This document shows, one piece after another, positions 36,466 through 60,300 of a DNA stretch of 64,000 nt (its first letter is position 1; every line of letters starts with the position of its first letter). The stretch lies in assembly GCF_054482595.1 (NCBI RefSeq), contig NZ_CM137008.1; one strand, written 5' to 3'. A program made the translations under genes and the position numbers. The notes beneath the pieces were generated by a model, which did not search any database, was not told the origin of the DNA, and saw only the letters and a program-made list of their open reading frames with translations.

Positions 36466-36607
36466 ACGGGCAATTTTACGGCCCCCATTAATCTCAAACT
36501 ATACCATTAGCACTGGAAGTTGGCACGTACAGGTGGGCAAAAAAACGAAAACTGGTCAACCAAATATCAGTTTGATTGACCAGTAAGTCTGTAGGGTAAT
36601 CAGTTAG

Positions 36608-38148: not shown

Positions 38149-39333
38149 TTAACGGCTAAAGAAAGCGCGCTGGATCGCCAGTTCGACACCGCGAACTTCG
38201 GCCAGGCCTTTCAGACGACCAATTGCGGAGTAACCAGGGTTGGTTTTCTTCTTCAGGTCGTCCAGCATCTGATGACCGTGGTCCGGACGCATCGGGATCA
38301 GGTCTTCTTTGCCTTCCGCTTTACGACGGTGTTCTTCTTCAACAATCGCTTTCACCACTTCGTACATATCAACGTCACCGTTCAGGTGCGCCGCTTCGTG
38401 GAAGGTTTTCGGGTTATCTTCACGCATGGTGGAGCGCAGATGGGTGAAATAAATACGCGGACCGAACTGCTTGATCATATCAACCAGATCGTTGTCAGCA
38501 CGCACGCCGTAGGAACCGGTGCACATGGTGAAACCGTTCGCCATGCTGTTTACGGTATCAACCATCCACTGCATATCTTCAATGGTGGAAACAATGCGCG
38601 GCAGGCCGAGGATCGGGCGCGGCGGATCGTCCGGGTGAACCGCCATACGCACGCCAACTTCTTCAGCAACTGGAATAATCGCTTTCAGGAAGACAGCAAA
38701 GTTTTCGCGCAGTTTGGCTTTGTCGATATCTTTGTACAGCTCCAGGTGCTTACGGAACTGGTCGAGGGTATACCCTTCTTCCGCGCCCGGCAGACCGGCA
38801 ATGATGTTACGCGTCAGACGCGCTTTGTCTTCGTCGCTCATAGTGGCGAAGCGTTCAGCTGCCTGAGCAATTTCTTCTTCGGTGTAATCCGCTTCCGCGC
38901 CTGGACGTTTCAGGATATGCATTTCGAATGCAGCGAATTCGATCTGGTCGAAGCGCAGAGCTTTGGAGCCGTCTGGCAGCACGTATTCGAGGTCAGTACG
39001 GGTCCAGTCGAGCACCGGCATGAAGTTGTAGCACACGGTGCGAATGCCGCACTGCGCCAGGTTGCGCAGAGTCTGCTGATAGTTAGCGATCCACTGCTCA
39101 TAGTTGCCAGTGTGGGTTTTGATATCTTCGTGAATTGGTACGCTTTCTACGACAGACCACACCAGGCCTGCGTCTTCAACGATCGCCTTGCGTTTGAGGA
39201 TCTCTTCTACGGACCATACTTCGCCGTTCGGGATATGGTGCAGCGCGGTAACCACGCCAGTTGCGCCCGCCTGACGGACATCAGCTAAAGAAACCGGATC
39301 GTTTGGGCCGTACCAGCGCCAGGTCTGTTCCAT
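38149..39333 (-). CDS. uxuA: Mannonate dehydratase UxuA, 394 aa
   Basis: Translation from the internal ATG ([23 protein letters not shown]...) with AGAGGA SD. The ORF-track extension to 39369 is rejected. Confidence 0.9.
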
Positions 39334-39495
39334 GATTTTTCCTCTTTCACATAGTGGGTTCCACAGCAAAGAGACGCGGAACCCTGGAGTTGTTTAGGTA
39401 TCCGGATGAACAACCAGACCGCAGCCGTGGCGTTGCATCGGATGAGATGGCGTATAAGTTCTACCTTTTGGTAAGACATGTCAACCCGAATTCTA

Positions 39496-39509
39496 AAATT
39501 GGTTAACCA
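39496..39509. promoter_or_regulatory. Palindromic TGGT-N-ACCA operator-like site (AAATTGGTTAACCA) in the uxuA-gntP divergent control region
   Basis: Matches the FadR-subfamily GntR operator pattern used by UxuR/ExuR; read directly. Confidence 0.45.
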
Positions 39510-39603
39510 CATCACAAGAATTTCACTCTCATGGTTGTTGCTGCAAATTGCAGCAAAGGGTAATCGATGGTTATTGATCAGAGGATGTGACATTCATCGC
39601 AAC

Positions 39604-39619
39604 AATGGTTGACCAATTT
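39604..39619. promoter_or_regulatory. Second operator-like palindrome (AATGGTTGACCAATTT) upstream of gntP
   Basis: Same half-site pattern; read directly. Confidence 0.45.
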
Positions 39620-39672
39620 ACATAACATGTCGCCCAAAATAACAACGGTTCAACCAGGTAAGGTAAAACGTT

Positions 39673-41016
39673 ATGCATGTGCTTAACATTCTCTGGGTGG
39701 TATTCGGCATTGGTCTGATGCTGGTACTGAATTTGAAGTTCAAAATCAATTCAATGGTGGCTTTGTTGGTGGCGGCGCTGTCCGTCGGGATGCTGGCGGG
39801 CATGGATTTGATGTCGCTGCTGCACACCATGAAAGCGGGCTTCGGCAACACGCTGGGGGAACTGGCTATCATCGTGGTGTTCGGTGCGGTCATCGGTAAA
39901 TTGATGGTCGACTCCGGCGCGGCTCACCAGATAGCGCATACGCTGCTGGCGCGTCTCGGTCTGCGCTATGTACAGCTGTCAGTGATTATCATCGGCCTGA
40001 TTTTTGGTCTGGCGATGTTCTATGAAGTGGCCTTTATCATGTTAGCGCCGCTGGTTATTGTCATTGCCGCCGAAGCTAAAATTCCGTTCCTGAAACTGGC
40101 GATCCCGGCAGTAGCAGCTGCCACTACCGCACATTCACTGTTCCCACCGCAGCCGGGTCCGGTGGCGCTGGTGAATGCTTATGGCGCAGATATGGGGATG
40201 GTTTATATCTATGGCGTACTGGTGACGATCCCAAGTGTAATCTGCGCAGGTCTGATCCTGCCGAAGTTCCTCGGCAATCTTGAGCGCCCAACGCCATCAT
40301 TCCTGAAAGCAGATCAACCGGTAGATATGAACAATCTGCCCTCTTTCGGCGTTTCGATTCTGGTGCCGCTGATCCCGGCGATCATTATGATCTCTACCAC
40401 CATCGCCAATATCTGGCTGGTAAAAGATACCCCTGCCTGGGAAGTGGTTAACTTTATTGGTTCCTCGCCGATTGCGATGTTTATTGCGATGGTGGTTGCA
40501 TTCGTACTCTTTGGCACCGCACGTGGTCATGACATGCAGTGGGTGATGAACGCTTTTGAAAGTGCGGTGAAAAGCATTGCAATGGTGATTCTGATCATCG
40601 GTGCGGGTGGCGTGCTGAAGCAAACTATCATCGACACCGGCATTGGCGACACCATCGGCATGTTGATGTCCCACGGCAATATCTCGCCCTACATTATGGC
40701 ATGGCTGATCACTGTGCTAATTCGTCTGGCGACGGGTCAGGGTGTCGTTTCGGCGATGACCGCCGCCGGGATTATCAGTGCTGCAATCCTTGATCCAGCA
40801 ACTGGTCAGCTGGTTGGCGTGAATCCGGCGTTGCTGGTGCTGGCGACGGCTGCGGGTTCCAACACCCTCACGCACATTAACGATGCATCTTTCTGGTTGT
40901 TCAAAGGTTACTTTGACCTGTCGGTAAAAGACACGTTGAAAACCTGGGGACTGCTGGAGCTGGTCAACTCCGTGGTTGGGCTGATTATTGTGTTGATTAT
41001 TAGCATGGTAGCGTAA
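39673..41016 (+). CDS. gntP: Fructuronate/gluconate transporter GntP, 447 aa
   Basis: Sequence recognised; GntP-family permease. Confidence 0.9.
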
Positions 41017-41025
41017 AAGAACACC

Positions 41026-41051
41026 AGAGCCTGCCAATGGCAGGCTCTGTT
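41026..41051. terminator. Bidirectional hairpin terminator between convergent gntP and fimH
   Basis: cagagcctgcc-aatg-ggcaggctctg read directly. Confidence 0.6.
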
Positions 41052-57366: not shown

Positions 57367-60300
57367 TTACTCGCTAACCATCTTACTGAATAACTTCTCC
57401 AGATAAACGGGGCCTGTATCCTCAATAAAAAGCACATTTCTGGCTTCCAGATTTTCTTTTGAGTCAGGTACGTTTACTAAGTCAACATAACAAGTTTCAG
57501 AAACAATAAATGCACTTAATGATAAGTTATCATCCGATAATTTATGTTCAAGATTCTTAATTTCTTTATATAATCCGAACTTCGGATCATCAAGATTAAG
57601 ATTGCGAATGCCTTTTGGATCAATAAGACTTAGCCATTGTTTACCACTTTTATCATCGACTAACCACAATAAGAAATCCGGATAAAAATTACCCGCAGTA
57701 GCAAAGCCCAGGCCTTTATTTTTAGAATCCGCATTTCTTAGCAGATATAAACTTTTATCACCAATAATTTTCTGCCCTTTTGTCGAATCAACAAAAGACT
57801 GAAGATCCTGAACAAAAGTAATCTCGCTTGGCGCACCAAGTGCTGCCGGTCGCATTTTTAGCGGTATATTGGCATTTTTTTCAATCGAAAGAAGCGGGTA
57901 ATAGAGATGTTTATCAAAGGTAATAGCAACCATCCCGGATGCACTCCAGGATTTTGCTTTACCGATTTCGCCGTCGATGACCAATTGTTGTAATTGTTCC
58001 AGCCGACTGGCATAAGCCAACCCATCATCAGTTTCTTCGATCTCGAAATGGTACATTTTGATCATACCAGGATCATCTTCTTTCACCTGCGTGACTTCAT
58101 AAAACTGACCTTCATAAGCATTTTTCAAGGTGTTGTAAAAGCGATCAGTATAATCAGTCAGCAGACGAAGCATAATATCTTCCTGCTTAGCAATATCTGC
58201 ATATTGCTTAATCTCAAGCTCTGAAGCTGGAATCAAAAGGGTATACCAACTATTTCCGATCTTTGTCTTACCGGTACAAAAGTCGATCAAACGTTGTTTA
58301 TCCACACGTAAATTTGACCAGCCGCGTTGTAGTTTATAATTCTGAATGGCGAGATAAAGCCGATCAAAATCAAATGCACTAATGATTTTATAATCTAACT
58401 TCGCTTCATTGCGCACGTTAACCGGAGTATTGTCCCCTTTTCTGCTGGTATCAATCGACTCAAGTTTCGGGTATAAGTCCAGCTTAATATGCGGCTGCTT
58501 AATTTTCCCCTGAAAATCAGCAGGAACTTCATACAATTCAGGAAAATAGACACGTTTAAAGCCGAGTCTTTGATTATCTTTATAACCATCTTTAAGCTTA
58601 AGTGTTTTAAGCCTGGTTGCTGGCATATTTGGCCGAGTTTCAAAATTCAGCTCAAGGATCTCGTCACTTGGCGTAATCCCTTCATCTTCCAGGTATTGTT
58701 TAAAGGTTGCCATGTAATCGGCACGTACACCGAATACATTCAGTGTCTCTAATTTTTCCAGATGCAACCCTTTCGGACGCTCACCGGGTGTACTGCGTTT
58801 CAAAGAATAATTGCGACCTTTAAGGCGTACGCCACGACCAAATAACTGAATGATCTGTGAACCTTCTCCACGGCCCATATTGAGCAATCCCATCGTTGAG
58901 ACGCGCCAACTGCTCCAGCCTTCAGTAAATTTTCGCGAGCCGATCAAAATATGTAGTCGCGAGTCTTTGTCATTTAACGTATGAAAGAGTGACTTTGCAA
59001 AATCATCTCTCTGATAATCAAATGTCGTATCCTCTTCACACATTTTGTAAAGAGACGGTGCATCACCAATATTGATAAGGCCAAACGGTTCGGCCTCACC
59101 AACCTGTAATGCCAGTTCACCTTTACTGCCTATTAAATTCAGAACTCGCAGTCGCTGACCAGAGTGAGTGGTGTTAAACAAGCGAGAAAGAATATCTGCG
59201 TAGATATCTTCCGGAGCGTTCATTAGTGCAGTAAAGCGATTTTCAAAAATGTTACGCTCTTTGGTATCGAGGATTCGCGCTTTATTTTTAATGAGATCGT
59301 TAATCCACGCTTTTGCCTGCGTTTCGTGGTTTAAAAACCATGCTAAAAAACGCAATACTGCGTGAATGTCTGAATCTTCACCACTTACCGTATTACCGAC
59401 AAAAACCCACAGCGGTTTTTCGATATTAAATTCACTTAATTTTTCTTTATTCTTATTGAATAAATATTGTTGCTGATAAAAGCTGAGCAAACACGCGGTA
59501 AAATACTCATACCGACGCTCATCTTTTTTATCCTCTTCAGGATTAAGGTTAAGAATCAGTGATTCTTTACCATAACCATCCTCATAGAAGAATTTATAGG
59601 AGTAATCGAACAGAATCGATTTTCCATAGACCTCTCGCGTCGCCTGAATACGCGCATCTCGTTTTTCTTCGCTGGTTAATGCTATTTGCGCTAACTCTTC
59701 TTCGTTCAGTTTACCTAAGGCCGTTGTTTCAAAAAGCAGCTTTGCTTTTTTCTTCTGAATTTCTGTTTCAACTGCCTCAACATTATTGCCACCGGCTACT
59801 GCCTGGCCAAAAGTTGCTGAATATTCAAACGCAAATCCGTCACGTGTTAATTTGTCACGACGGCGCATCCAGGCACCAGCAGCACTTCCGGTGCCTTTAT
59901 GCCCTTCATCAATCAGAACCAGATTGTTGCCTTCAAATGCCTCAACGGCAACAGTTTTGTCACCCATTTCATCGGCAAGTTTATTGATATCAATAACTTC
60001 AATCGTGCCTTTGAAGGGCGCAGATTTACTCTTATCGAATAACTGGTATTGGGTAAATCCTGAGTTTTCCAGCTCATCTAAATGTTGCTTCGACAGGCGT
60101 TCATCCGGAGTAAGCAGGATGATTTTGTCGGGGTAATGGTGGGTATTACCGTTCTGGAAATAATGTAAGTATTGCAAAATATTGACATGCAATAGCAGTG
60201 TCTTACCAGAACCAGTAGCATTCCAGTATGCCAGTTTATTCAAATCATCCAGAATATATGATTTGAACTGATTAGCCCGGTCTTTTGCTGTTTTATCATT

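Follow-up and report, generated by a model that had tools for sequence, protein, structure and literature searches.

The uxuAB and gntP genes matter for the colonization of the gut by Escherichia coli, and several regulators have been reported to act on the DNA between them. The consensus binding sequence of UxuR is the 18-bp AAATTGGTATACCAATTT (PMC8092373). Genomic SELEX with purified UxuR yielded a single genomic peak, which lay in the gntP/uxuA spacer of K-12, and the addition of glucuronate lowered UxuR binding; a figure legend in the same study mentions two UxuR binding sites within the operon (PMC5934670). Deletion of uxuR de-represses both uxuAB and gntP (PMC9369180, PMC10016265). The gntP-uxuAB pair has also been listed among the divergent gene pairs that carry multiple CRP sites (Shimada et al. 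2011). According to two papers that cite Zheng et al. (2001), an OxyR site lies in the uxuAB/gntP promoter region and uxuA expression is higher without OxyR.

We analyzed a stretch of 64,000 nucleotides (hereafter, the window) in which 339 bp, from 39334 to 39672, part two divergent open reading frames. The flanking features are as follows.

39331-39333, minus strand: start codon of uxuA (mannonate dehydratase), with its ATG at 39333; from the open reading frame list and the RefSeq annotation of strain XH990, which is 100% identical.
39673-39675, plus strand: start codon of gntP (fructuronate/gluconate transporter); from the open reading frame list and the RefSeq annotation.

The gene neighborhood is yjiC, uxuR, uxuB, uxuA, gntP, fimH, fimF and fimD, and the interval is the uxuA/gntP intergenic region of E. 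coli. A 601-bp query spanning it was 100% identical to the sequence of E. coli strain XH990 and matched 5404 of 5426 complete E. coli genomes. K-12 MG1655 differs from the window at two nucleotides of the intergenic region (39495 A>G and 39629 G>A), both of which fall outside the operator boxes, CRP sites and palindrome described below. Since the region is nearly identical to that of K-12, the published K-12 results apply here; a K-12 position is obtained as 4,590,969 minus the window position. The interval is therefore the bidirectional control region, already known and well studied, that serves the hexuronate genes uxuAB and gntP, and our findings mainly confirm the textbook regulation of hexuronate catabolism and fructuronate uptake by UxuR/ExuR and CRP and, as reported, OxyR. 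With a probability of roughly 0.7, we read the region as two conserved promoter-operator modules joined by a freely evolving spacer, in which a perfect 19-bp palindrome is present but is not a third operator.

A preliminary description of this DNA had proposed two operator-like palindromes of the type TGGT-N-ACCA between the divergent uxuA and gntP starts, at 39496-39509 and 39604-39619, where the letters are AAATTGGTTAACCA and AATGGTTGACCAATTT, respectively. Both palindromes are in the sequence; two bases rather than one lie at the center (TGGT-NN-ACCA). The full operators, and a related box elsewhere in the window, are as follows.

39496-39513, unstranded: UxuR/ExuR operator box 1, AAATTGGTTAACCACATC; 13/18 to the consensus, TGGTnnACCA core perfect, conservation and published SELEX.
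39602-39619, unstranded: UxuR/ExuR operator box 2, ACAATGGTTGACCAATTT; 14/18 to the consensus, with a perfect core, conservation and published SELEX.
36549-36566, unstranded: third UxuR-type box, AAACTGGTCAACCAAATA, between uxuB and uxuR; from the motif scan.

The core of box 1, TGGTTAACCA at 39500-39509, is a perfect 10-bp palindrome, and that of box 2 is TGGTTGACCA at 39606-39615. Four copies of the motif TGGTNNACCA were found across the 64 kb, where 0.75 would be expected; none of 100 shuffled sequences reached four, and three of the four copies lie in the uxu locus. The third of these, at 36553-36562 upstream of uxuR, is outside the studied interval yet belongs to the same regulon. Both intergenic boxes combine a match to the consensus with a promoter location and conservation, and binding is documented in the literature. 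Boxes 1 and 2 are the known UxuR/ExuR operators. The preliminary description was correct in suggesting that the divergent promoters of uxuAB and gntP share control by UxuR/ExuR, which is already established; this agrees with the consensus matches, with the SELEX peak in the spacer and with the presence of the boxes in every locus examined.

To define the anatomy of the region, one genome per species with GntP was scanned for a divergent uxuA/gntP arrangement, which was found in three Escherichia lineages, 11 Citrobacter, Klebsiella spallanzanii and one Enterobacteriaceae metagenome-assembled genome. Alignment of these 16 loci revealed two conserved modules, and boxes 1 and 2 were present in 16/16. 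The left module reads ATGGCGyATAAgTTC..CCTTTTGGTA..ACATGTCAACC, followed by a variable 9 bp, box 1 and then ATCAC, and the right module consists of TGTGAcattcaTCGCA, box 2 and then TAACAT. Within the modules, box 1 always stands 22 bp from a TTGACA hexamer and box 2 always stands 17 bp from the center of CRP site 1 (16 loci in both cases). Metagenomes were scanned with a box 1 pattern built to exclude the common E. coli allele, which brought in contigs resembling E. albertii and another four to five Escherichia lineages; for one allele, E69, taken from the GTDB genomes, identity to the complete E. coli genomes in RefSeq does not exceed 92.6%. Among eight Escherichia lineages, 11-12% of the columns in the operators and CRP site 1 were variable. 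Between the modules lies a segment of a different character.

39517-39585, unstranded: variable spacer between the modules, 69 bp; fast sequence change, fixed length.

Across the same eight lineages, 31 of the 50 columns flanking the palindrome (62%) were variable, and no indel was present in the 145-bp stretch that runs from box 1 to the -10 hexamer of gntP. The segment equivalent to 39528-39577 measures 48-50 bp in Escherichia and in 10 Citrobacter loci, although its sequence is unalignable between the two genera. Boxes 1 and 2 stand 104-106 bp apart in every Escherichia locus and in 10 Citrobacter loci; three loci carry insertions, and there the distance is 159, 219 and 239 bp. The strict conservation of its length suggests that the spacer is not free of function.

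The promoters of the two genes were placed from the conservation pattern of the 16 loci, and their geometry is to be read as a prediction.

39334-39448, minus strand: putative 5' leader of uxuA, about 115 nt; start predicted from conservation.
39456-39484, minus strand: putative uxuA core promoter; conservation in 16 loci.
39623-39628, plus strand: putative gntP -10 hexamer TAACAT; conserved in 16 loci.

On the uxuA strand, GGTTGACATG is invariant in the 16 loci and supplies a perfect -35 hexamer, TTGACA, at 39484-39479; a 17-bp spacer separates it from a weak -10 candidate, GAACTT, at 39461-39456, and transcription would start near an invariant CAT at 39449-39447. GAACTT is a poor match to a -10 hexamer. 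A uxuAB reporter fragment whose primers map to 39417-39613 was active and hexuronate-induced (PMC3578941), which is consistent with the TTGACA promoter. The putative leader includes an approximately 78-nt Escherichia-specific insertion relative to Citrobacter, and its predicted RNA fold comprises two hairpins (-38.1 kcal/mol, z = -3.1). A scan also returned a sigma-70 match (TTGTGA, 16 bp, TAGAAT; 39517-39490) that would put box 1 in the promoter spacer. It was set aside: its -10 hexamer is CAGAAT in K-12, and the segment is not conserved in Citrobacter, which lacks a -10 hexamer there, whereas box 1 and TTGACA are fixed. We therefore prefer the conserved TTGACA promoter, and the alternative match may serve as a minor promoter in Escherichia. 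For gntP, a start near 39635 is predicted, and box 2 would cover the -35 and spacer region of this promoter. The center of box 1 would lie at about -56.5 from the uxuA start.

Two CRP sites, one of them putative, were identified in the region.

39586-39601, unstranded: CRP site 1, TGTGACATTCATCGCA; 9/10 to the consensus, ChIP-seq, conservation.
39501-39516, unstranded: second CRP-like site (putative), GGTTAACCACATCACA; 8/10 to the consensus, from sequence.

A scan of the window for TGTGA-N6-TCACA gave 39586-39601 as the sole 9/10 site, in addition to one 10/10 site elsewhere in the window, and CRP site 1 is highly conserved in all 16 loci. A CRP ChIP-seq peak has been mapped between gntP and uxuA in ETEC H10407, with TGCGATGAATGTCACA as the predicted site (PMC4287617); this sequence is the reverse complement of 39586-39601, so that the site combines a consensus match with occupancy in vivo. 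CRP site 1 would be centered at -41.5 from the predicted gntP start, an arrangement that would be compatible with class II activation by CRP. The second CRP-like site overlaps box 1, with its center at about -60.5 from the predicted uxuA start, and the TCAC(A/G) half-site that adjoins box 1 is kept in both Escherichia and Citrobacter. We assign it as a putative second CRP site. The preliminary description mentioned neither the site with ChIP-seq occupancy nor the CRP-like site over box 1 nor the reported OxyR input.

The same uxuAB reporter (39417-39613) showed OxyR-dependent repression under H2O2 and osmotic stress (PMC3578941). A further paper that appeared to concern OxyR and gntP (PMC4444293) proved to hold a mere list of strain deletions. 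We scanned for the OxyR tetramer consensus, ATAGnTnnnAnCTAT-N7-ATAGnTnnnAnCTAT, which comprises four ATAG-type elements at 10-bp spacing, and obtained the following best match.

39454-39490, unstranded: best match to the OxyR consensus; 13/20 specified positions.

A score of at least 13 was reached at only 19 of the approximately 64,000 positions of the window. The match overlaps both the -35 and -10 hexamers predicted for uxuA, a location that fits repression, and OxyR probably binds there, over the uxuA core promoter. CRP and, as reported, OxyR are thus additional factors that act in the region, at positions other than the palindrome.

These observations would fit the following scheme. When neither fructuronate nor glucuronate is present, the GntR-family repressors UxuR and ExuR would occupy both boxes; inducer would free UxuR/ExuR from the DNA, and cAMP-CRP could then activate the uxuA and gntP promoters. 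At gntP, box 2 lies directly downstream of the presumed class II CRP site (-41.5), and bound repressor would occlude RNA polymerase. At uxuA, box 1 at -56.5 overlaps the class I CRP-like site at about -60.5, and the repressor would most probably block CRP-dependent activation in the main. OxyR bound over the uxuA core promoter at 39454-39490 would repress uxuAB.

The remaining element is the inverted repeat in the spacer.

39538-39556, unstranded: perfect 19-bp palindrome, TTGCTGCAA-a-TTGCAGCAA; from an inverted-repeat search, function probably none.

The preliminary description had noted this repeat at about 39537-39555; it exists as described, and only its coordinates were off by one. Its center, 39547, is 42.5 bp from the center of box 1 and 46.5 bp from that of CRP site 1, and it would stand at -88 and -99 from the two predicted start sites, upstream of both. 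As DNA it can fold into a stem of 8 bp closed by a loop of 3 nt (DNA parameters: -8.3 kcal/mol, z = -4.3). When the 339-bp region was simulated with a first-order Markov model, about 1% of the simulated sequences held a perfect repeat whose arms were 9 bp or longer and whose loop did not exceed 5 nt. The whole window contained 10 such repeats, at about six distinct places, against 1.8 expected, which indicates that repeats of this kind are not rare in real sequence. One of them, just past the gntP stop codon, is probably a terminator stem. The palindrome itself is real and not a chance match.

The 35-mer around the palindrome is exact in 4088 of 5401 E. coli genomes. Four genomes were inspected among the non-exact, lower-ranked matches, and none of their differences fell within the palindrome; it was intact in every E. 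coli sequence read. The 35-bp query was found at one place per E. coli genome, with no second copy detected. Across the eight Escherichia lineages, however, only E. coli and one sister lineage (MOD1) have the palindrome in perfect form: the paired positions, out of nine, number 9 in E. coli, 9 in MOD1, then 7, 7, 7, 6 and 5, and 8 in E. albertii. Symmetry is lost in five of the eight lineages, which keep the same genes and both operators, and no compensatory change was seen among the eight. The spacers of Citrobacter, Klebsiella and the metagenome-assembled genome contained no significant inverted repeat. An early comparison of four lineages had given 3/19 variable columns in the palindrome versus 21/50 in the flanks; with the metagenome lineages added, this island of conservation weakened to 6/19 (32%) versus 31/50 (Fisher p = 0.03), and the symmetry was seen to decay. 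The TGCAAAT core is invariant in all Escherichia lineages, so that a constraint on it, at most a weak one, is possible.

Several identities were considered for the palindrome. As a CRP site (6/10) or an OxyR site (10/20) it is unremarkable. A UidR/GusR operator was considered, since E. coli characteristically carries the gus operon, which would fit the lineage distribution of the palindrome; no 9-mer within one mismatch of either arm occurs in the K-12 uidR-uidA region, and the palindromes found there, CTGTGTGCAACACAG and CGAACGTTCG, are unrelated. A CytR-type site, suggested by the TGCAA/TTGCA pentamers, seems unlikely, because the spacing goes against the octamer-repeat rule and CytR is found in Citrobacter too. 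A repeat family or mobile element was likewise discarded in view of the single place per genome. A viral collection yielded one match to the palindrome, inside an open reading frame of an unrelated low-GC phage, which is uninformative.

We consider the palindrome most likely to be a neutral quasi-palindrome perfected by mutation. Hairpin-templated (template-switch) mutation produces clustered changes that create complementarity, and Ripley, as well as Lovett and colleagues, reportedly described quasi-palindromes perfected by template-switch mutation in E. coli. E. albertii offers a candidate example. Of the seven bases on the left side of its palindrome, six differ from those of E. coli, and the five closest to the palindrome match the reverse complement of the right flank exactly; its arms measure 14 bp with one mismatch. 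This extension probably arose independently, by a hairpin-templated (template-switch) mutation.

The preliminary description had instead invoked an additional factor at the perfect inverted repeat. Under that reading, the palindrome would be an operator at which a further dimeric transcription factor, possibly specific to Escherichia, provides a third input to uxuAB and/or gntP. The perfect 9+1+9 symmetry, with its chance of about 1% in an intergenic region of this size, the position between two promoters, the intactness in E. coli and the lower variability relative to the flanks would all suit an operator, as would the fact that E. albertii lengthened the palindrome rather than losing it. A dimeric operator should, however, keep its two-fold symmetry in orthologous regions, and here the symmetry decays without compensation, even where both UxuR/ExuR operators persist; Citrobacter and Klebsiella have the same gene arrangement without the palindrome. 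Nor did a cognate regulator emerge: the sole adjacent regulator gene is uxuR, the palindrome has no further sites in E. coli, it fits none of the CRP, OxyR, UxuR and UidR sequences checked, and its sequence did not occur in the literature searched. A third operator is unlikely because the palindrome is restricted to E. coli and its sister clade, decays in a non-compensatory manner and exists as a single copy, and the proposal of an additional factor at this position is not supported.

Slightly less probable still is a structural role, in which the palindrome would act as a flexible or cruciform-prone hinge, or as a site for a nucleoid protein such as Fis, linking the operators or the CRP-bound promoters. 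The two operators are 106 bp apart, or about 10 helical turns, and the distances in the loci with insertions (159, 219 and 239 bp) correspond to 15.1, 20.9 and 22.8 turns; such near-integer phasing, however, comes from just three independent insertions and has a chance probability of about 0.1. The absence of spacer indels in Escherichia, despite the 62% of variable flanking columns, would also suit a structural element, but Citrobacter keeps the spacing without the palindrome, which argues that the palindrome is unneeded for whatever the spacing serves. The 15-bp core, GCTGCAAATTGCAGC, with G/C at -7/+7 and an AAATT center, resembles the outline of a Fis site, although positions 3 and 4 on either side of the center misfit the Fis consensus. 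It is similarly doubtful that the palindrome is a recent E. coli-specific operator or structural switch for a dimeric protein, coupling both promoters through the fixed-length spacer; such a switch would add a lineage-specific third input to the textbook regulon. An RNA hairpin (a terminator, attenuator or small-RNA stem) is highly improbable despite the predicted stem-loop, since the palindrome lies upstream of both predicted starts and hence outside both main transcripts, no T-run follows it on either strand, a terminator scan found nothing, an Rfam search over it returned no match at E-values up to 1, and the pairing is not kept across lineages.

The invariant TGCAAAT, the lower variability and the fixed spacer length are compatible with a weak role in structure or spacing. 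The comparison adds two modest new observations. First, the modules keep a constant separation (104-106 bp, without indels in Escherichia) while the intervening sequence is replaced almost freely, which hints at a spacing or phasing requirement. Second, the perfect palindrome most likely derives, in particular lineages, from a quasi-palindrome; it serves as a caution that not every perfect inverted repeat in a promoter region is an operator.

Template-switched quasi-palindromes show the same pattern as the one described here, in that a cluster of changes in one flank (that of E. albertii) complements the other flank and the lineages differ by isolated, non-compensatory changes; the present case differs in that the mutational event is proposed from a comparison in which the ancestral states are unpolarized and the spacer is unalignable outside Escherichia. 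Compared with OxyR-repressed promoters, uxuAB is alike in having a reported site and reported repression, and the candidate site covers the predicted -35 and -10 hexamers; the 19-bp palindrome is unlike OxyR-type sites. The operators of the E. coli hexuronate regulon (uxuAB, gntP, uxuR, uxaCA, exuT and uidA) have in common a TGGTnnACCA core within an 18-mer of this consensus type and a location in the promoters of hexuronate genes, and the boxes at this locus are those known sites, with no difference. Among CRP-dependent divergent pairs such as idnDOTR/idnK and glpTQ/glpABC (Shimada et al. 2011), uxuA/gntP likewise carries multiple CRP sites in the common spacer, in the form of one ChIP-seq-supported site and a weaker CRP-like site, together with a local repressor operator for each promoter. 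In contrast to the other pairs, the second CRP-like site of uxuA/gntP overlaps a repressor operator, and this overlap with box 1 suggests that UxuR/ExuR may act at uxuA by anti-activation rather than by simple occlusion.

The 145-bp stretch at 39496-39640, which carries both UxuR/ExuR operators (box 1, 39496-39513; box 2, 39602-39619), contained no indels among eight Escherichia lineages (counterparts L001-L003 and L094-L101 were compared), and 62% of the columns in the spacer beside the 19-bp palindrome were variable among the same lineages. The distance between box 1 and box 2 was 104-106 bp, or approximately 10 helical turns, in Escherichia and in 10 Citrobacter loci; in three insertion-bearing loci, the separation was 159, 219, and 239 bp. 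This pattern may stem from a requirement for phasing or looping between the two operators.

Two metagenome lineages, L100 (2900-3420) and L101, encode a uxuA that is 98% identical to that of E. coli and retain CRP site 1, box 2, and a TAACGT -10 element. The gntP and fim genes were absent in both lineages, and their place was taken by a GGTATA-repeat region and a 368-aa ORF resembling nanM. Their intergenic region resembles that of K-12 in its left part and is diverged in its right part, a pattern suggestive of a junction formed by recombination or deletion near position 39520. The intergenic region of E. coli strain E69 (L001, CP089930.1, 2662-3000) showed at most 92.6% identity to any of the RefSeq complete E. 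coli genomes (n = 5404). The UxuA and GntP proteins of this strain were 100% identical to those encoded in the window; at the nucleotide level, the identity of uxuA (97.6%) was higher than that of gntP and fimH (94-95%).

The 5' leader of uxuA carries approximately 78 nt in Escherichia that are inserted relative to most Citrobacter (39363-39440, minus strand). Folding of the inferred leader RNA (39448 to 39331) gave two stable hairpins, with a free energy of -38.1 kcal/mol and a z-score of -3.1. In Klebsiella spallanzanii (L011), an additional UxuR-type box, TTTTGGTCAACCATTG, was located within the uxuA leader at approximately 60-75 from the uxuA start (intergenic positions), and this box had no counterpart in Escherichia or Citrobacter.

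A genomic SELEX study reported a binding peak (level 5.0) of RNA polymerase-RpoH (sigma-32) holoenzyme in the K-12 gntP/uxuA spacer (PMC5493296). Two further elements were mapped outside the intergenic region:

41026-41050, perfect inverted repeat (each arm 9 bp or longer), starting approximately 10 bp past the gntP stop codon (41016)
36549-36566, third UxuR-type box, AAACTGGTCAACCAAATA, between uxuB and uxuR

The inverted repeat is probably the stem of the gntP terminator, and the third box is presumably the autoregulatory operator of uxuR. Another sequence, AAAAGGGTATACCAACTA (58235-58252), matched the UxuR consensus at 14 of 18 positions and lacked the TGGT..ACCA core; this match is probably unrelated and may instead be part of a GGTATA-type (NanR-like) site region.
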